DNA of 5,379 bases from a virus (IMGVR_UViG_2537562119_000008); one strand, 5' to 3'. Shown: positions 1-5,379, numbered from the stretch's first letter. The notes: generated from the letters alone by a model not told the origin. Program-made: numbers and translations.

Positions 1-90
1 GCAAGGCTATACCAAAAAATCAGTGTAGGTTCAGAAAACGATGCACCATACAATCATCAATAATTTCAAATTGTCCATTGTGCATAAATC

Positions 91-133
91 ATAAAGAAAA
101 CCGCAGCACGTCGTATGCAAGAACGTGCTGCGG
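91..133 (-). terminator. Predicted intrinsic terminator-like hairpin distal to tI
   Basis: Perfect 10-bp inverted repeat CCGCAGCACG (101-110) / CGTGCTGCGG (124-133) with a 13-nt loop. On the minus strand it is followed by TTTTCTTTAT (reverse complement of 91-100). No T-tract follows it on the plus strand. Confidence 0.35.
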
Positions 134-292
134 TTGGCTGGTGAACTTTCGATAGTGCGAGTATTGAATGATTTCCAGCTGTTGCCGATTTTACTATGTT
201 TTCAGTAGAACACTTAGACAAAACTGAGGCACACAAATCTTTGCACTGGATTGCAAGGCTTTGTGCTTCTCTGGAGTGCGACATGTTTGATA

Positions 293-334
293 ACAAAAAA
301 TTAGCGCAAGAAGACAAAAATCACCTTGCGCTAA
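293..334 (-). terminator. tI / sib-region terminator hairpin downstream of int (lambda-like)
   Basis: Inverted repeat TTAGCGCAAG (301-310) / CTTGCGCTAA (325-334). On the minus strand it is followed by TTTTTTGT (reverse complement of 293-300). The minus-strand sequence GCGCAAGGTGATTTTTGTCTTCTTGCGCTAATTTTTT matches the lambda tI/sib hairpin as I remember it. Position is about 190 bp beyond the att core, as in lambda. Confidence 0.7.
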
Positions 335-575
335 TGCTCTGTCTCAGGTCACTAATACTATCTAAGTAGTTGATTCATAGTGACTGGATATGTTGTGTTT
401 TGTAGCATTATGTAGTCTATTTTTTAGACTAAAGATATTGTAACACATTGATATTAATGGTTTTTAATGTTTCGCGTTCAGCTTTTTTATACTAAGTTGG
501 CATTATAAAAAAGCATTGCTTATCAATTTGTTGCAACGAACAGGTCACTATCAGTCAAAATAAAATCATTATTTG
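328..575. other. attP: attP phage attachment site (lambda-type POP'), core at 481-495
   Basis: The 15-bp common core GCTTTTTTATACTAA is at 481-495. The P' arm (496-575, GTTGGCATTATAAAAAAGCATTGCTTATCAATTTGTTGCAACGAACAGGTCACTATCAGTCAAAATAAAATCATTATTTGATTTC) matches the lambda P' arm as I remember it. The P arm carries lambda-like sequence (AGGTCACTAATAC..., CATAGTGACTGGATATGTTGTGTTTT). The site abuts the 3' end of int. Phage-type sequence on both sides of the core indicates attP rather than a prophage attL/attR junction. Confidence 0.88.
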
Positions 576-1639
576 ATTTCAATTTTGTCCCACTCCCTGC
601 CTCTGTCATCACGATACTGTGATGCCATGGTGTCCGACTTATGCCCGAGAAGATGTTGAGCAAACTTATCGCTTATCTGCTTCTCATAGAGTCTTGCAGA
701 CAAACTGCGCAACTCGTGAAAGGTAGGCGGATCCCCTTCGAAGGAAAGACCTGATGCTTTTCGTGCGCGCATAAAATACCTTGATACTGTGCCGGATGAA
801 AGCGGTTCGCGACGAGTAGATGCAATTATGGTTTCTCCGCCAAGAATCTCTTTGCATTTATCAAGTGTTTCCTTCATTGATATTCCGAGAGCATCAACAT
901 GCAATACTGTTGGGATGGCAATTTTTACGCCTGTTTTGCTTTGCTCGACATAAAGATATCCATCTACGATATCAGACCACTTCATTTCGCATAAATCACC
1001 AACTCGTTGCCCGGTAACAACAGCCAGTTCCATTGCAAGTCTGAGCCAACATGGTGATGATTCTGCTGCTTGATAAATTTTCAGGTATTCGTCAGCCGTA
1101 AGTCTTGATCTCCTTACCTCTGATTTTGCTGCGCGAGTGGCAGCGACAGGGTTTGTTGTTATATGGCCTTCAGCTATTGCCTCTCGGAATGCATCGCTCA
1201 GTGTTGATCTGATTAACTTGGCTGACGCCGCCTTGCCCTCGTCTATGTATCCATTGAGCATTGCCGCAATTTCTTTTGTGGTGATGTCTTCAAGTGGAGC
1301 ATCAGGCAGACCCCTCCTTATTGCTTTAATTTTGCTCATGTAATTTATGAGTGTCTTCTGCTTGATTCCTCTGCTGGCCAGGATTTTTTCGTAGCGATAA
1401 AGCCATGAATGTAACGTAACGGAATTATCACTGTTGATTCTCGCTGTCAGAGGCTTGTGTTTGTGTCCTGAAAATAACTCAATGTTGGCCTGTATAGCTT
1501 CAGTGATTGCGATTCGCCTGTCTCTGCCTAATCCAAACTCTTTACCCGTCCTTGGGTCCCTGTAGCAGTAATATCCATTGTTTCTTATATAAAGGTTAGG
1601 GGGTAAATCCCGGCGCTCATGACTTCGCCTTCTTCCCAT
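569..1639 (-). CDS. int: Tyrosine recombinase, phage lambda-type integrase Int (356 aa)
   Basis: Full 356-aa ORF with ATG start. The translation (MGRRRSHERRDLPPNLYIRNNGYYCYRDPRTGKEFGLGRDRR ... HLLGHKSDTMASQYRDDRGREWDKIEIK) matches lambda Int as I remember it, including the C-terminal catalytic tyrosine motif (MASQY). The 3' end abuts the attP P' arm and the 5' end overlaps xis by 23 nt, as in lambda. Confidence 0.97.
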   Translation of the reverse strand: MGRRRSHERRDLPPNLYIRNNGYYCYRDPRTGKEFGLGRDRRIAITEAIQANIELFSGHKHKPLTARINSDNSVTLHSWLYRYEKILASRGIKQKTLINYMSKIKAIRRGLPDAPLEDITTKEIAAMLNGYIDEGKAASAKLIRSTLSDAFREAIAEGHITTNPVAATRAAKSEVRRSRLTADEYLKIYQAAESSPCWLRLAMELAVVTGQRVGDLCEMKWSDIVDGYLYVEQSKTGVKIAIPTVLHVDALGISMKETLDKCKEILGGETIIASTRREPLSSGTVSRYFMRARKASGLSFEGDPPTFHELRSLSARLYEKQISDKFAQHLLGHKSDTMASQYRDDRGREWDKIEIK

Positions 1640-1835
1640 TTCTGATCCTCTTCAAAAGGCTACCTGTTACTGGTCGATTTAAGTCAACCTTTACCGCTGA
1701 TTCGTGGAACAGATACTCTCTTCCATCCTTAACCGGAGGAGGGAATATCCTGCACTCGCGTACCCATCGACGAACTGTTTCAAGGCTTCTTGGGCGTCGC
1801 TGGCGTGCGTTCCACTCCTGAAGTGTCAAGTACAT
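1617..1835 (-). CDS. xis: Excisionase Xis (72 aa)
   Basis: The 72-aa translation MYLTLQEWNARQRRPRSLETVRRWVRECRIFPPPVKDGREYLFHESAVKVDLNRPVTGSLLKRIRNGKKAKS matches lambda Xis as I remember it. It sits immediately upstream of int and overlaps it, as in lambda. Confidence 0.95.
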   Translation of the reverse strand: MYLTLQEWNARQRRPRSLETVRRWVRECRIFPPPVKDGREYLFHESAVKVDLNRPVTGSLLKRIRNGKKAKS

Positions 1836-1865
1836 CGCAAAGTCTCCGCAATTACACGCAAGAAA
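1820..1865 (-). promoter_or_regulatory. PI promoter with cII-binding TTGC-N6-TTGC repeat, overlapping the xis start
   Basis: The minus strand reads CTTGCGTGTAATTGCGGAGACTTTGCGATGTACTTGACAC. The TTGC tetrads are the reverse complement of GCAA at 1858-1861 and 1848-1851, 6 nt apart. This is the classic cII-activated promoter architecture, and the lambda PI region lies in this position relative to the xis ATG (1835). Exact -10 and transcription start are not resolved here. Confidence 0.6.
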
Positions 1866-1887
1866 AAACCGCCATCAGGCGGCTTGG
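1862..1887 (-). terminator. Predicted intrinsic terminator overlapping the stop codon of the 55-aa ORF, just upstream of PI
   Basis: Minus strand reads AAGCCGCCTGATGGCGGTTTTTTCTT: a GC-rich stem CCGCC/GGCGG with a 4-nt loop, followed by six T. Confidence 0.45.
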
Positions 1888-2042
1888 TGTTCTTTCAGTT
1901 CTTCAATTCGAATATTGGTTACGTCTGCATGTGCTATCTGCGCCCATATCATCCAGTGGTTATAACAGTCGTTGATGTTCTCTGCTTCGATAACCCTGTT
2001 GAATGGCTCTCCATTCCATTCACCTGTGACTCGGAAGTGCAT
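1875..2042 (-). CDS. Small hypothetical protein (55 aa) between the accessory block and xis
   Basis: Not in the supplied ORF track (under 60 aa). ATG at 2042-2040 preceded by GGAG with a 7-nt spacer (minus strand ATGGAGATGATAAATG). Translation MHFRVTGEWNGEPFNRVIEAENINDCYNHWMIWAQIAHADVTNIRIEELKEHQAA. Its size (168 bp) and its 39-bp spacing from xis match the small unnamed ORF annotated next to xis in lambda, as I recall that annotation. Confidence 0.55.
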   Translation of the reverse strand: MHFRVTGEWNGEPFNRVIEAENINDCYNHWMIWAQIAHADVTNIRIEELKEHQAA

Positions 2043-2052
2043 TTATCATCTC

Positions 2053-2080
2053 CATAAAACAAAACTCGCCGTAGCGAGTT
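2053..2080 (-). terminator. Predicted intrinsic terminator-like hairpin between the 143-aa ORF and the 55-aa ORF
   Basis: 7-bp inverted repeat AACTCGC (2063-2069) / GCGAGTT (2074-2080) with a 4-nt loop. On the minus strand it is followed by TTGTTTTAT, immediately before the RBS of the 55-aa ORF. Confidence 0.35.
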
Positions 2081-2129
2081 CAGATATAATTTCCACCAAA
2101 GGCAGTAGTTGCTTGATGCTAAGAATTAT

Positions 2130-2561
2130 TCAATATCTATTCCTGTAATATCTTTTATCTTTTATCTTTTTCCTTGCAAAGCCTTTTGCTAGTGATTTTG
2201 AAACACTCATAAGTGTACTAATTCCCTCATCCTTAAAGTTTGTTTTTATAGCTTGCCAGACATCCTTTTGACGTAAGTCAGCAATAAAATCATGCCCTCT
2301 TGCTGTCAACCTCAGTGGTACTTCGATCCAACTATATCCAACACCTTCCCCTAACGCTTTGGACAATATATGACCGAACCCAGGTTTTCCATCAACCCTG
2401 ACTATTAATTCGTAGTCACATAATAATCGCATATGGAAAATAAAATCTTGGTCATATCTATTAAAGCCATTATCCTCTAGTTCACTAAGCATCGTGTCAG
2501 GGCCACGAGTTTTTTCGAATGCGATAAGTAGATCTTTTAGATATTGCTGGTCTAATTTCAT
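2130..2561 (-). CDS. Hypothetical protein (143 aa), AT-rich accessory gene with a basic C-terminal tail
   Basis: ORF with ATG start and a strong RBS (GGAGG, 5-nt spacer). Hand counts on two 60-nt samples gave roughly 27-37% G+C, against roughly 50% for a sample in int. The C-terminus is lysine/arginine-rich (KGFARKKIKDKRYYRNRY). I recognise no family with confidence; the N-terminal pattern weakly recalls small phage DUF-type proteins. Confidence 0.6.
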   Translation of the reverse strand: MKLDQQYLKDLLIAFEKTRGPDTMLSELEDNGFNRYDQDFIFHMRLLCDYELIVRVDGKPGFGHILSKALGEGVGYSWIEVPLRLTARGHDFIADLRQKDVWQAIKTNFKDEGISTLMSVSKSLAKGFARKKIKDKRYYRNRY

Positions 2562-2589
2562 TGCCGCCTCCGTGACATGTCACAGAGAT

Positions 2590-2928
2590 TTATATCATTA
2601 ATTTTGTTTCGTGCCAGCCTTTGGTCACCCAGCATTGTGAGTCACCATTACACGGGCATGAATTAACAGGAACTCTCTCGCCGCACTTACCGCACCGTTT
2701 TCTGCTGATCGATTTTATACGCCAGCGCACACGTGCATCATCCTGGCGGCTCAGTAACGCGATGTACTCACCAAACTCGCAAGGCGCACGCCTGAAGCGA
2801 CGCGTGGCACAGTTACGCTCCAGCATTTCAATTTCCTGAGCATCAAGTACAAGCTCCAGCTTACGCATACCGGATGATGCTTGCTTGGCTCTCTGATCGG
2901 CTTTGTGCTCTGTTGCTGATTTAGCCAT
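2590..2928 (-). CDS. Cys-rich hypothetical protein (112 aa), possible zinc-ribbon / Ea8.5-like protein
   Basis: ATG start with RBS AGGAAAAG about 8 nt upstream. One hand-counted 60-nt sample gave about 55% G+C, typical of the lambda-like flanks. The C-terminal half has a CxxC...CxC...C cluster (RKRCGKCGERVPVNSCPCNGDSQC). It lies 28 nt upstream of the 143-aa ORF. It is in the approximate position of lambda ea8.5 and of similar size if translation starts at the internal Met21 (92 aa). Homology to Ea8.5 is not verified. Confidence 0.55.
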   Translation of the reverse strand: MAKSATEHKADQRAKQASSGMRKLELVLDAQEIEMLERNCATRRFRRAPCEFGEYIALLSRQDDARVRWRIKSISRKRCGKCGERVPVNSCPCNGDSQCWVTKGWHETKLMI

Positions 2929-2969
2929 TCTGCTTTTCCTGCATCAGGAGAAAGACAATCATGGCGGCG

Positions 2970-3071
2970 CGGATACTTCCGGTATCTTTTTACGCGATAT
3001 TCCCCTTCAATGGCACATACAAGAAGAGAGCCATCAACAGGAGTGATTGAGGAATCGACAACCAGCAACGC
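2970..3071 (-). pseudogene. Remnant of an S24-family peptidase gene (UmuD / LexA / CI C-terminal-domain-like fragment)
   Basis: The minus-strand frame just after a TAA stop encodes LLVVDSSITPVDGSLLVCAIEGEYRVKRYRKYP. This aligns with UmuD [33 protein letters not shown] and with the LexA motif VARIDDEVTVKRL. No upstream coding sequence for the catalytic Ser (GDSM) motif was found in any frame, and similarity is lost after about 33 codons. The supplied 105-aa ORF (2751-3068) starts at TTG and otherwise looks like read-on into the 112-aa gene region. Confidence 0.5.
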
Positions 3072-3121
3072 TTAATTATCTATAGTGTCGTATTTGCTTC
3101 ATAAAATATGGCGAATAACAC

Positions 3122-3159
3122 AAAGCCCGCAGCAGCTCATTGTGCGGGCTTTTCTTATA
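3122..3159. terminator. Hairpin terminator downstream of the 204-aa secreted-protein gene
   Basis: 10-bp inverted repeat AAAGCCCGCA (3122-3131) / TGCGGGCTTT (3143-3152) with an 11-nt loop. The plus strand follows it with TTTTCTT; the minus strand follows it with a weaker TTTGTGTTATT. It lies in an AT-rich intergenic region 3' of the 204-aa gene. Confidence 0.45.
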
Positions 3160-3221
3160 CCTACTTCCTAGAGATAATTCTATGGAGGCATTAAATCAAT
3201 ACTGTCATTGGTAATATCATA

Positions 3222-3836
3222 TTATCTAAAAGTCTTTCCACTTTTAACATCTAGGTATATTCTGTTCGACAACGTCATTCCTCCGCAATATGTGAAATAG
3301 ATGTTTTCACCCTTATTGCTTGATGCCATCCACCCTCCGATTTCCTTAAAATCGCTTTCCGTGCAGACCCCTTCATTTATTAACTTCCTAGCTGCCGAAG
3401 AAAACTCTTTTTTGTATATACGGTAGTCATCAGATCCTTTGATTAAAGTATCATCTCCGCTCGCATTTTCAGCAGGATCTGATGGCCTTTCACTGCTAAG
3501 ATCACTAAGTTTAACCCATTCTGAAAACTTGCCATTAACGATTCCATTTTTTCTTGTGCAGGATTTATTACCTTCTTTAATATATTCGCTTTCCCCTCCA
3601 ACACATGAGGCTGAATATGGCTCAGTTATACGAACCCATTCACCTTTTTTTTCTAGAAAATCTACGCCTTCCCTGAAAAATAGTTTCCCAGCCACTCCAC
3701 ATTTACTTGAAGGGCAGGTATGTCTTTCCGTTCGATCAACAACAACCCATAGTTTTGATTCATTTTTTGCCATTGCCGATGGTATTTGAGATGAGACAAT
3801 TAACGTAAGCCCTAAAATTAGTATTGATTTTTTCAT
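3222..3836 (-). CDS. Secreted (Sec signal peptide) cysteine-containing protein of unknown function (204 aa), AT-rich moron
   Basis: ATG with RBS AAGGAA and a 6-nt spacer. The N-terminus MKKSILILGLTLIVSSQIPSAMA|KNE has a basic n-region, a hydrophobic core and an AxA-type cleavage site, with no lipobox Cys. The mature part has 6 Cys. Hand counts on two 60-nt samples gave roughly 33-38% G+C. Motifs GEWVRI and SEWVKL weakly recall SH3b-like folds. Confidence 0.7.
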   Translation of the reverse strand: MKKSILILGLTLIVSSQIPSAMAKNESKLWVVVDRTERHTCPSSKCGVAGKLFFREGVDFLEKKGEWVRITEPYSASCVGGESEYIKEGNKSCTRKNGIVNGKFSEWVKLSDLSSERPSDPAENASGDDTLIKGSDDYRIYKKEFSSAARKLINEGVCTESDFKEIGGWMASSNKGENIYFTYCGGMTLSNRIYLDVKSGKTFR

Positions 3837-4134
3837 TGTAATTTCCTTTTACTTTTTACAAAGCGTTTAATCATGGCTGATTATCTCTAAGTGTAGTAAC
3901 AGCCTTGTGCGAAACATGTTACCAAATCGCCATTTCAGTGTATCCGCAGTTAGGCTGCCACTTCAAGGATTCCTAATTACATGGTACGTAAGCGTAAAAT
4001 CCCGTTGGTTGGCGGGTAATAACTCTGATCAAATCTCCCTTGTCTTTTGCTCTTACGTATGCAGCTCTTGTGTATTCAACCCAGGCCTCCAGTTCAGCAA
4101 TACGCTTACTTCCATCCGAGATAACACCTTCTAC

Positions 4135-4386
4135 TCACGCTGCTCGTTGAGTTTTGATTTTTGCTGTCTCCAGCTCAACACGCAGTTTCCCCACCGTTAG
4201 CGCAATATCCTCGTTCTCCTGGTCGCGGCGTTTGATGTATTGCTGGTTTCTTTCCCGTTCATCCAGCAGTGTCAGCACAATCGATGGTGTTACCAGCTCA
4301 TGGAAAAGGTCCGCGTCAAATCCCCAGTTGTCAGGCATTGCCTGCTCTGCCGCTTCACGCAGTGCCTGAGAGTGAATTACGCTCAC
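4135..4386 (-). CDS. ea22: Ea22-like protein, N-terminal part (83 aa) ending at an in-frame TGA; likely a disrupted gene
   Basis: GTG start overlapping the stop of the upstream TraR-like gene (GTGA), at the position where lambda ea22 starts. The N-terminus MSVIHSQALREAAEQAMPDNWGFDADLFHELVTP... resembles the conserved N-terminus of Ea22-family proteins as I remember them. The frame continues open for 53 more codons after the TGA (see findings). Confidence 0.5.
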   Translation of the reverse strand: MSVIHSQALREAAEQAMPDNWGFDADLFHELVTPSIVLTLLDERERNQQYIKRRDQENEDIALTVGKLRVELETAKIKTQRAA

Positions 4387-4604
4387 TTCGAACCTCTCTG
4401 TTTACTGATAAGCTCCAGATCTTCCTGGCAACTTGCACAAGTCCGACAACCCTGAACGGCCAGGCGTCTTAGCTCATCTATGGGATCGCCACACTCACAA
4501 CAATGAGTGGCAGATACAGCCTGGTGGTTCAGGCGGCGCATTTTTATTGCTGTGTTGCGCTGTAATTCTTCAATTTCTGATGCTGAATCAATGATGTCTG
4601 CCAT
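4383..4604 (-). CDS. TraR/DksA-family C4 zinc-finger protein (lambda Orf73-like), 73 aa
   Basis: The translation has the C-x2-C-x17-C-x2-C zinc finger (CECGDPIDELRRLAVQGCRTCASC). This aligns with the F-plasmid TraR motif CEACGNPIPEARRKIFPGVTLCVEC. Length is 73 aa, and the stop overlaps the ea22-like start. Confidence 0.8.
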   Translation of the reverse strand: MADIIDSASEIEELQRNTAIKMRRLNHQAVSATHCCECGDPIDELRRLAVQGCRTCASCQEDLELISKQRGSK

Positions 4605-4656
4605 CTTCCATTAATCCCTGAATTGTTGGTTAATACGCTTGGGGGTAAATGCGAGC

Positions 4657-4680
4657 AATAAAAAAGGAGCCTGTAGCTCC
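4657..4680 (-). terminator. Weak intrinsic terminator-like hairpin between the 93-aa ORF and the TraR-like gene
   Basis: Stem GGAGC (4666-4670) / GCTCC (4676-4680) with a 5-nt loop. On the minus strand it is followed by TTTTTTATT (reverse complement of 4657-4665). The stem is short, so termination would be weak or partial. Confidence 0.3.
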
Positions 4681-4702
4681 CTGATAATTTTGCTTTTCAT
4701 GT

Positions 4703-4984
4703 TCATCGTTCCTTAAAGACGCCGTTTAACATGCCGATTGCCAGGCTTAAATGAGTCGGTGTGAATCCCATCAGCGTTACCGTTTCGCGGTGCTTCTTCA
4801 GTACGCTACGGCAAATGTCATCGACGTTTTTATCCGGAAACTGCTGTCTGGCTTTTTTGATTTCAGAATTAGCCTGACGGGCAATGCTGCGAAGGGCGTT
4901 TTCTTGCTGAGGTGTCATTGAACAAGCCCCATGTCGGCAAGCATAAGCACACAGAATATGAAGCCCGCTGCCAGAAAAATGCAT
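4703..4984 (-). CDS. Hypothetical protein (93 aa; alternative start at 4918 gives 71 aa)
   Basis: ORF with ATG at 4984. An internal ATG at 4918 overlaps the stop of a possible 27-aa upstream ORF (ATGA). No recognisable domain. It occupies roughly the position of lambda orf61 but does not match its size. Confidence 0.5.
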   Translation of the reverse strand: MHFSGSGLHILCAYACRHGACSMTPQQENALRSIARQANSEIKKARQQFPDKNVDDICRSVLKKHRETVTLMGFTPTHLSLAIGMLNGVFKER

Positions 4985-4998
4985 TCAGTGGTTGTCAT
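4915..4998 (-). CDS. Possible small hydrophobic peptide (27 aa), translationally coupled between orf63 and the downstream ORF
   Basis: ATG at 4998-4996 overlaps the orf63 stop (ATGA). Translation MTTTECIFLAAGFIFCVLMLADMGLVQ has a single hydrophobic, transmembrane-like core. Its TGA at 4917-4915 overlaps the ATG at 4918 (ATGA). Not in the ORF track (under 60 aa). It is mutually exclusive with the first 22 codons of the 93-aa reading. Confidence 0.25.
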   Translation of the reverse strand: MTTTECIFLAAGFIFCVLMLADMGLVQ

Positions 4999-5186
4999 AC
5001 CTGGTCTCTCTCATCTGCTTCTGCTTTCGCCACCATCATTTCCAGCTTTTGTGAAAGGGATGCGGCTAACGTATGAAATTCTTCGTCTGTTTCTACTGGT
5101 ATTGGCACAAACCTGACTCCAATTTGAGCGAGGCTATGTGCCATCTCGATACACGTTCTTAACTCAACAGGAGATGCTTTGTGCAT
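4995..5186 (-). CDS. orf63: Small early-left protein, lambda orf63-like (63 aa)
   Basis: 63-aa ORF with ATG start. Its size (192 bp), its 28-nt overlap with the upstream orf60a-like ORF and its distance from the exo stop all reproduce the lambda orf60a/orf63 arrangement as I remember it. The protein sequence itself was not verified against lambda. Confidence 0.6.
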   Translation of the reverse strand: MHKASPVELRTCIEMAHSLAQIGVRFVPIPVETDEEFHTLAASLSQKLEMMVAKAEADERDQV

Positions 5187-5341
5187 ACAGCCCCCCGTTT
5201 ATTATTTATCTCCTCAGCCAGCCGCTGTGCTTTCAGGGGATTTCTGATAACAGAAAGGCCGGGAAATACCCAGCCTCGCTTTGTAACGGAGTAGACGAAA
5301 GTGATCGCACCTACCCGGATATTATCGTGAGGATGCTTCAT
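5159..5341 (-). CDS. orf60a: Small early-left protein, lambda orf60a-like (60 aa from the ATG overlapping the exo stop)
   Basis: The ATG at 5341-5339 overlaps the exo TGA (5340-5338) as ATGA, giving a 183-bp ORF as in lambda orf60a. The ORF track starts 2 codons earlier, at the ATG at 5347. Translation MKHPHDNIRVGAITFVYSVTKRGWVFPGLSVIRNPLKAQRLAEEINNKRGAVCTKHLLLS. Confidence 0.6.
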   Translation of the reverse strand: MKHPHDNIRVGAITFVYSVTKRGWVFPGLSVIRNPLKAQRLAEEINNKRGAVCTKHLLLS

Positions 5342-5379
5342 CGCCATTGCTCCCCAAATACAAAACCAATTTCAGCCAG
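5338..5379 (-). CDS. exo: Exonuclease (lambda Exo / Red-alpha), 3' end only; gene truncated by the window edge
   Basis: The minus-strand frame entering from the right edge reads LAEIGFVFGEQWR then stop. This matches the C-terminus of lambda exonuclease (...DEALAEIGFVFGEQWR) as I remember it, and the stop overlaps the orf60a start as in lambda. Confidence 0.8.
   Translation of the reverse strand: MAEIGFVFGEQWR

Follow-up and report, generated by a model that had tools for sequence, protein, structure and literature searches.

What occupies the slot between xis and exo in the early-left region of a lambda-like phage, and how did it come to be there? The question is raised by a stretch of viral DNA of 5,379 nucleotides (IMGVR_UViG_2537562119_000008), which was analysed over its whole length and is called the window below. 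An earlier note, made from the sequence alone, had described it as lambda-collinear flanks around about 1.2 kb of extra, compositionally foreign DNA in the ea region. The answer favoured here, with a probability of about 90%, is that the source of the window is a temperate, lambda-like phage whose variable xis-exo slot holds a patchwork cargo that was assembled stepwise and has spread as a cassette.

The relationship between the window and lambda (NC_001416) was studied by local BLAST, with the gap interval rechecked at word size 7, and the whole window was also searched by megablast against 50,697 phage records. In the latter search, lambda and its derivatives appeared as two collinear pieces that together cover 59% of the window. 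By BLAST, the left piece (window 228-2090, lambda 27471-29333) aligned at 97.5% identity with 0 gaps, and the right piece (window 4088-5379, lambda 30094-31389) at 96.1% identity with three small indels, which bears out the collinear flanks. Between them, window 2091-4087 (1997 bp) stands in place of lambda 29334-30093 (760 bp), a segment that, according to the lambda annotation, holds ea8.5 and the 3' 40% of ea22, the part that encodes the C-terminal domain (CTD). No similarity to lambda was found in window 2091-4087, even at word size 7, and none to ea8.5 or the Ea22 CTD was found in the window. Because 1997 bp occupy the place of 760 bp of lambda, the event is a substitution and not a pure insertion, and ea8.5 and the CTD of ea22 were lost. 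Across the gap the window gains 1237 bp net; with the small indels of the right flank counted, the figure for the alignment as a whole is 1233 bp, very close to the 1.23 kb that the earlier note had reckoned; its picture of extra DNA was thus right as to the net gain and lacked the 760 bp of lambda that were replaced. The collinear flanks and the confirmed gene families place the window in the lambda-like int-xis...exo early-left region. As the note had also held, it is not wild-type lambda: there is a large indel, ea8.5 is missing, no full-length ea22 is present, and an end-to-end alignment without an indel does not occur.

The two outer junctions of the substituted block were then surveyed in 5,426 complete E. 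coli genomes, using for the left side a 301-bp probe placed across the junction. The side of the left junction that carries a 55-amino-acid open reading frame (ORF), orf55, and a terminator-like hairpin was matched in 2,309 genomes, only 173 of which continue into the first gene of the block, a DUF2513 gene, and nearly all of these 2,309 alignments stop at window 2086-2090. The 5' side of ea22 at the right junction was matched in 2,276 genomes; only 128 cross it, and most of the alignments start at window 4084-4088. Both outer junctions are recurrent, population-wide boundaries in E. coli prophages. On the left, lambda homology stops 9 bp past the hairpin, which lies 3' of the DUF2513 gene and is part of the conserved lambda flank, not the cargo's own. 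On the right, similarity to lambda Ea22 stops, by tblastn, at residue 102, and the lambda Ea22 CTD construct made for the nuclear magnetic resonance structure begins at residue 102 (PMC10834534). Since the two meet at this residue, the right junction is the published boundary between the Ea22 coiled coil and CTD.

A separate observation concerns a 42-bp hairpin element at the left boundary (window 2045-2086), which is kept at 100% in the E. coli prophage NZ_CP024618 (3001-3042). Both neighbours of the element are different there, with a 99-amino-acid gene in place of orf55 and an LprI-family lysozyme inhibitor as cargo. This suggests that the element is conserved for some function or serves to anchor recombination.

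The same arrangement is present in independent records. Phage Chlobot (PP925838.1), on which a literature search gave nothing, covers window 293-5379 at 99.3% and is the sole phage among the 50,697 records to do so, while among the E. coli prophages in the lambda attB, one that lies beside ybhC (NZ_CP030939) matches window 481-5379 at 99.8%, its homology beginning exactly at the att core, window 481. The full-length block was found in Chlobot, in 130 of the 5,426 complete E. coli genomes and in 16 plasmids. Chlobot and the attB prophages share with the window the gene order, the junctions, a frameshift in ea22 and a scrap of humD, and both of these lesions are already recorded as pseudogenes by the Prokaryotic Genome Annotation Pipeline (PGAP). 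Compared with Chlobot, the window alone has a 7-bp duplication in the DUF2513 gene, and the P arm of its attP (343-475) differs at 24 positions. An origin of the join in faulty assembly or a chimera can be given a probability close to nil and is refuted by the independent records: one separately sequenced phage, 130 complete E. coli genomes and 16 plasmids have both junctions identical to the base. Nothing in its favour was found for the join itself, and the private duplication alone could be a sequencing or assembly error. The duplication throws the final 7 codons of the DUF2513 gene out of frame (...KKIKDITGIDIE becomes ...KKIKDKRYYRNRY) and is absent from Chlobot and from the loci L003 and L006; the E. 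coli matches listed are 1990 bp long, where the query has 1997 bp. It may be a genuine mutation by slippage, or else an error of sequencing.

The locus L006 (E. coli F1267, NZ_OY754416, 945-3402) carries the same mosaic at about 3% divergence. Its ea22 is in a lambda-like frame, but there are two stop codons where ea22 joins a fragment of an EaA-like gene, and further internal stops lie in orf55 and in orf112, the second gene of the block. The DUF2513 gene and orf204, the third gene, are intact. This pattern fits an independent, ongoing decay of the same mosaic.

Across the population, the slot between xis and exo is a hotspot for accessory genes, with at least six different cargos in E. coli prophages. 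In the sampled genomes, the same slot was found to hold an Ea8.5-family gene with a 241-amino-acid Ea22-like gene; a 200-amino-acid gene on the plus strand; a PACE transporter with a LysR regulator; an LprI-family lysozyme inhibitor with a 202-amino-acid Ea22-like gene; Eag with a dATP/dGTP pyrophosphohydrolase; and, in another case, the insertion sequence (IS) IS1. The arrangement is also seen on plasmids of Citrobacter, Klebsiella, Enterobacter and E. coli, as prophage scrap adjacent to IS5.

Large plasmids from these hosts are 100% identical over window 2940-4100. On the Citrobacter freundii plasmid pA18-1 (NZ_CP022274), which has an IncA replicon, the stretch from the DUF2513 gene to orf60a lies at 6194-9384, and its neighbours are IS5, an ars operon and Rac-prophage genes (trkG and a lysis protein). 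It appears that scrap of an E. coli prophage was captured by plasmids and spread across genera.

The block itself (window 2091-4087; Table 1) carries three intact genes, namely the DUF2513 gene, orf112 and orf204, together with four gene scraps, and all of its genes lie on the minus strand, which is the way the lambda pL transcript runs. At least five pieces, whose nearest relatives differ, make up the block; the internal joins are abrupt, one of them with 3 bp of microhomology. Acquisition, represented by the three intact cargo genes, and decay, represented by the four gene fragments, are both seen in this accessory hotspot of a mosaic lambda-like phage, as had been proposed. Such donors as can be identified are other phages (P1-like phage-plasmids and epsilon15-like podoviruses) and not host DNA.

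This composite anatomy bears on the idea that one mobile element, such as an IS, a transposon or an integron cassette, brought the extra DNA into lambda in a single insertion. Some genomes do have a copy of IS1 or IS5 within the slot or next to it. However, the window holds no transposase ORF, there are neither terminal inverted repeats nor a target-site duplication at 2091/4087, 760 bp of lambda are missing where they should have been interrupted, and the block combines at least five pieces whose nearest relatives differ. The lack of any element signature, the missing lambda sequence and the composite block effectively refute such an insertion, which we regard as very improbable. The short repeats near the block ends are at chance level.

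The base composition of the block was compared with that of its surroundings. The mean G+C content of the block is 0.41, compared with 0.424 for the replaced lambda segment and 0.387 for lambda ea8.5, while the flanks range from 0.43 to 0.48, with 0.39-0.54 at third codon positions (GC3). The two AT-rich ORFs that had been noticed before are the DUF2513 gene (G+C 0.363) and orf204 (0.380), both with GC3 of 0.30; orf112 and the humD scrap, in contrast, are at about 0.50. The description of the DNA as compositionally foreign holds for the DUF2513 gene and orf204, but not for the block as a whole.

The DUF2513 gene product matched Pfam PF10711 with 42.5 bits against a cut-off of 29.6, over profile positions 1-100 of 100, and phrog_585 with E 1.8e-34. 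The gene is rare among phages (3 of the 50,697 records); in a Klebsiella phage, a homologue lies between the lysis and terminase genes. A literature search on DUF2513 function gave nothing relevant, and a sequence search of solved structures found none for DUF2513 or orf112.

The orf112 product, which has a cysteine-rich C terminus, gave a full-length match to phrog_536 (E 7e-48), a family named 'transcriptional regulator' in PHROGs. Window 2597-2986 is 90% identical at the nucleotide level to the epsilon15-like podoviruses TL-2011b and phiV10, and the ratio of nonsynonymous to synonymous substitution rates (dN/dS) of orf112 against TL-2011b is 0.27. In epsilon15-like phages, the homologue adjoins the terminase genes. 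A palindrome with the core GTGACATGTCAC lies just downstream of orf112 and is also present 3' of the homologous gene in TL-2011b. On the other side of orf112 is the 3' tail, about 40 bp long, of a DUF2591/NinX gene, which matches the end of the NinX gene in locus L007 and would have come along with orf112. A side-by-side alignment of the junction placed the meeting of this tail with the humD scrap at a GGA microhomology.

The third cargo gene, orf204, begins with what reads as a signal peptide, and homologues of the same length with 60-69% identity occur in Pseudomonas and Aeromonas. An AlphaFold2 model of the product was confident (predicted local distance difference test score, pLDDT, 90), and no structural match to its C-terminal domain was found in PDB or BFVD. 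The dN/dS of orf204 against the plasmid copy is 0.075, and on this ground it is a real, constrained gene under strong purifying selection. The gene and its conserved leader (window 3220-3978) are 84.8% identical to the P1/P7-like contig L011, and a match to both is also present on the E. fergusonii plasmid NZ_CP099330. The hairpin with a perfect 10-bp stem and a T-rich tract that lies beyond its 3' end is probably the intrinsic terminator of orf204, which is the only cargo gene with a demonstrable terminator of its own. A scan for terminators over the window found 12, compared with 4.6 +/- 2.2 in shuffles; the presence of hairpin terminators, which the earlier note had mentioned, was confirmed at three places, 4664-4682 and the two hairpins of Table 1.

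The four scraps comprise the NinX tail and the remains of ea22, of an EaA-like gene and of humD. The ea22 product matched the Ead/Ea22 family (PF13935) with E 1.3e-20 and 74.8 bits against a cut-off of 27, and by tblastn its first 102 codons align with lambda Ea22. Its frame carries two lesions: near 4158-4162 an A-run has gained one A, and at 4131/4132 there is a deletion of 4 bp. The TGA at 4135-4137 lies between them, so that the ORF ends after 83 codons and no intact frame leads into a CTD. In E. coli, PGAP calls this locus 'frameshifted; incomplete' and a pseudogene. Of the two in-frame TGA interruptions noted earlier in the region, the one in ea22 is present; a second was not identified in any recognisable gene. 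Programmed recoding at the ea22 TGA was considered and ruled out, as both alternative frames reach stops (the TGA in frame, and a TAG after a +1 shift) and as L006, with its lambda-like frame, has other stops further on.

The EaA-like fragment corresponds to about residues 148-178 of a 284-amino-acid protein, is fused in frame to the ea22 coiled-coil region and is 86% identical at the nucleotide level to the phage-plasmid PhiR41_1. The humD remnant, encoding part of a UmuD'-type S24 peptidase, is the S24 remnant that had been recognized before. By tblastn it has 89% amino-acid identity to the UmuD-like protein of PhiR41_1, and its nucleotide identity is 91% to PhiR41_1 and 83% to P1 humD. It falls below every family cut-off (14.2 vs 23.3 bits for Pfam and 53.4 vs 120 for the NCBIfam HumD family), contains no complete S24 domain and is a partial pseudogene according to PGAP. 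No LexA box of the form CTG-N10-CAG was found anywhere in 2091-4087. The four fragments would be non-functional debris, with the ea22 product amounting at most to an 83-residue coiled-coil stub. For Ea22 of full length, an effect in favour of lysogeny is reported.

These scraps also bear on the direction of change. Were the window the ancestral state, lambda would have been derived from it by a deletion of about 1.2 kb, and laboratory lambda does have other derived lesions, for example an orf61 frame that is apparently shifted relative to the phrog_303 consensus. The lambda slot, however, holds 760 bp of unrelated sequence with an intact ea8.5 and a structurally characterized Ea22 CTD, whereas it is the window that carries the truncated ea22, EaA, humD and NinX scraps, and a simple deletion turns neither state into the other. 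Little credence, on a par with that given to a single mobile-element insertion, is attached to this derivation.

In the favoured reading, that of a stepwise patchwork, the pieces would have been put together by illegitimate, microhomology-level joins among co-resident phages and phage-plasmids. Among them would be a cassette with the DUF2513 gene, a regulator cassette of epsilon15 type that brought along a scrap of the gene upstream of it, humD and EaA-like scraps of the P1-like phage-plasmid kind, and the gene for the secreted SH3b protein with its own terminator. Once complete, the block would have passed as a whole from one lambdoid prophage to another through homologous recombination in the conserved flanking DNA, with the hairpin by orf55 on one side and the coding region for the ea22 coiled coil on the other as probable exchange anchors. 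The intact cargo genes would be read leftward with the pL transcript, perhaps also from weak promoters of their own.

Several observations weigh against this reading. No donor was found for the whole block, nor one with even two neighbouring pieces in the order of the window; when phages and plasmids were searched for a single donor of window 2940-4100, the matches were either further copies of this arrangement or isolated pieces. The P1-like contig L011 has humD upstream of orf204, in reverse of the order in the window. Window 2091-2565 and 3072-3219 have no identifiable source outside the same arrangement. For the presence of the block in 130 genomes, vertical descent would be an alternative to recombination in the flanks. 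As to expression, a scan of the minus strand for sigma-70 promoters matching at least 9 of 12 positions found none upstream of any cargo gene, and a relaxed scan likewise gave nothing convincing, its best candidate being a weak extended -10 at 3944-3916.

Instead of a chance patchwork, the DUF2513 gene, orf112 and orf204 could form a coherent module selected as a unit, for example for superinfection exclusion, envelope protection or anti-phage defence. Most copies have all three genes intact, purifying selection on orf204 is strong, the orf204 product is predicted to be exported and to have an SH3b domain of the cell-wall-binding type, and a predicted LprI-family lysozyme inhibitor occupies the same slot in other prophages. 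Note, however, that PADLOC-DB v2 gave no match at E <= 0.01 for the DUF2513 gene, orf112, orf204 or the remnants, and that each of the genes is found alone elsewhere: in epsilon15-like phages, in a Klebsiella phage and, for orf204, next to humD on a P1-like plasmid. In addition, orf112 of L006 has an internal stop, and gene scraps lie between the three genes. We consider such a module unlikely, and the same holds for its fuller form as a host-benefit module in which orf204 would act at the envelope and the 42-bp hairpin and ea22 coiled-coil region would be dedicated exchange points. If it were true, orf204 might block superinfecting phage or protect peptidoglycan.

Morons and mosaic genomes of lambdoid phages are an established concept (Hendrix; Juhala), and moron insertion had been proposed for this locus. 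The block resembles morons in placing extra genes between conserved neighbours of related phages, in the lower G+C content of two of its three intact genes (the DUF2513 gene and orf204, but not orf112) and in the terminator of orf204. It differs from them in that resident genes have made way for it and that pieces of other phages' genes came with it. With a demonstrable terminator for orf204 alone and no convincing sigma-70 promoter found for any cargo gene, the block is therefore only in part established as a moron in the strict sense.

Compared with lambda's exo-xis region (NC_001416 29079-31347), the window shares the 5' part of ea22, orf73, orf61, orf63 and orf60a at 96-98%, but where lambda has ea8.5 and a complete ea22, the window has three cargo genes and four scraps. 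The set of ea22, orf73, orf61, orf63 and orf60a is the typical lambdoid cassette, with considerable diversity outside it and two extra genes in lambda (PMC10834534). Ea22 proteins are themselves mosaic, having an N-terminal segment and coiled coil in common and unrelated C-terminal domains (PMC10834534). The Ea22_V1-V3 variants of Shiga toxin (Stx) phages (PMC10834534, PMC7093339) break like the window after the coiled coil, at about residue 102; they are, however, intact, with alternative folded CTDs, whereas the window has a 30-residue EaA-like scrap and a frame broken by TGA. The humD loci of P1, P7, D6, PhiR41_1 and NZ_CP099330 include the nearest relatives of the humD, EaA-like and orf204-plus-leader pieces, but these P1-like and related phage-plasmids have a full humD of 129-130 amino acids and another gene order, and in none of them are the three pieces contiguous.

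The arrangement is already known, in that it has been sequenced, annotated and deposited in public databases, and module swapping at this place is ordinary and published. The value of the present analysis lies mainly in correct annotation, and it shows turnover of the non-essential xis-exo slot by recombination, with the ea22 coiled-coil/CTD boundary and the hairpin by orf55 as recurrent exchange points in E. coli prophages. What the DUF2513 protein and the well-conserved secreted orf204 protein do are questions of ordinary 'phage dark matter'.

Table 1. Features of the window, with positions counted from its first nucleotide.
Feature	Position	Strand	Description and basis
Left lambda-collinear flank	228-2090		attP, int, xis, 55-aa ORF and hairpin; BLAST and lambda annotation
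attP core	481-495
int	569-1639	-
xis	1617-1835	-
orf55	1875-2042	-	55-aa ORF
Hairpin at left module boundary	2062-2081	-	Terminator-like; terminator scan; RNA fold -12.1 kcal/mol, z -3.2
DUF2513 gene	2130-2561	-	143 aa; Pfam PF10711, phrog_585
Private 7-bp tandem duplication	2153-2159		GATAAAA on minus strand
Palindrome	2568-2587		20 bp, core GTGACATGTCAC; RNA fold -10.8 kcal/mol, z -3.0
orf112	2590-2928	-	112 aa, intact, cysteine-rich C terminus; phrog_536
DUF2591/NinX gene 3' tail	2937-2973	-	About 40 bp; TL-2011b annotation, junction alignment
humD/UmuD' (S24 peptidase) remnant	2961-3071	-	37 codons; residues 46-82 of a 129-aa protein
Hairpin, probable orf204 terminator	3122-3152	-	Perfect 10-bp stem then T-rich tract; RNA fold -22 kcal/mol, z -3.3
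orf204	3222-3836	-	204 aa; predicted signal peptide, SH3b-like N-terminal domain, C-terminal domain of unknown fold
orf204 leader	3837-3978	-	Conserved along with the gene
EaA-like fragment	4005-4083	-	phrog_20174 and phrog_21749 matches, tblastn
Right lambda-collinear flank	4088-5379	-	5' part of ea22 to 3' end of exo, all minus strand
Truncated ea22	4135-4386	-	83 codons; Pfam Ead_Ea22
orf73	4383-4604	-	TraR/DksA-like
orf61-region ORF	4703-4984	-
orf63	4995-5186	-
orf60a	5159-5347	-
exo 3' end	Right edge of window	-

Some further observations were made in the flanks. At window 4853, lambda carries one extra T (lambda 30862), which cuts the orf61 frame at 61 amino acids. In the window, this frame is a 93-amino-acid ORF with a full-length match to phrog_303, and PGAP annotates a 71-amino-acid protein in E. 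coli prophages. From this comparison, the orf61 of reference lambda looks like a frameshifted form.

At the other end of the window, the P arm of attP (343-475), from the Int arm-type sites to the core, has 24-29 differences in about 130 positions relative to lambda and Chlobot; int, by contrast, has 5 mismatches to lambda in 1071 bp. Window 1-227 is not lambda and marks a further mosaic boundary, in the b region. Combined with window 1-227, this form of the P arm is frequent in E. coli: in 606 genomes, at least 80% of window 1-520 is covered. No transfer RNA or transfer-messenger RNA was found in the window, and an Rfam search of the whole window at E <= 1 returned nothing but a sub-threshold match at 37-132 to the Shigella small RNA CssrB (44 bits against a gathering threshold of 76).

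The chromosome of E. coli ET220 contains a complete attP (NZ_CP100981, 6001-6520; window 1-520, 99.8%). Two lambdoid prophages are arranged there in tandem, and the attP separates the tail-fibre end of the first from the int gene of the second. The counterpart of window 1-227 in this strain is downstream of a prophage-borne diguanylate cyclase gene, and the second of the two prophages carries Eag and the dATP/dGTP pyrophosphohydrolase as its cargo.

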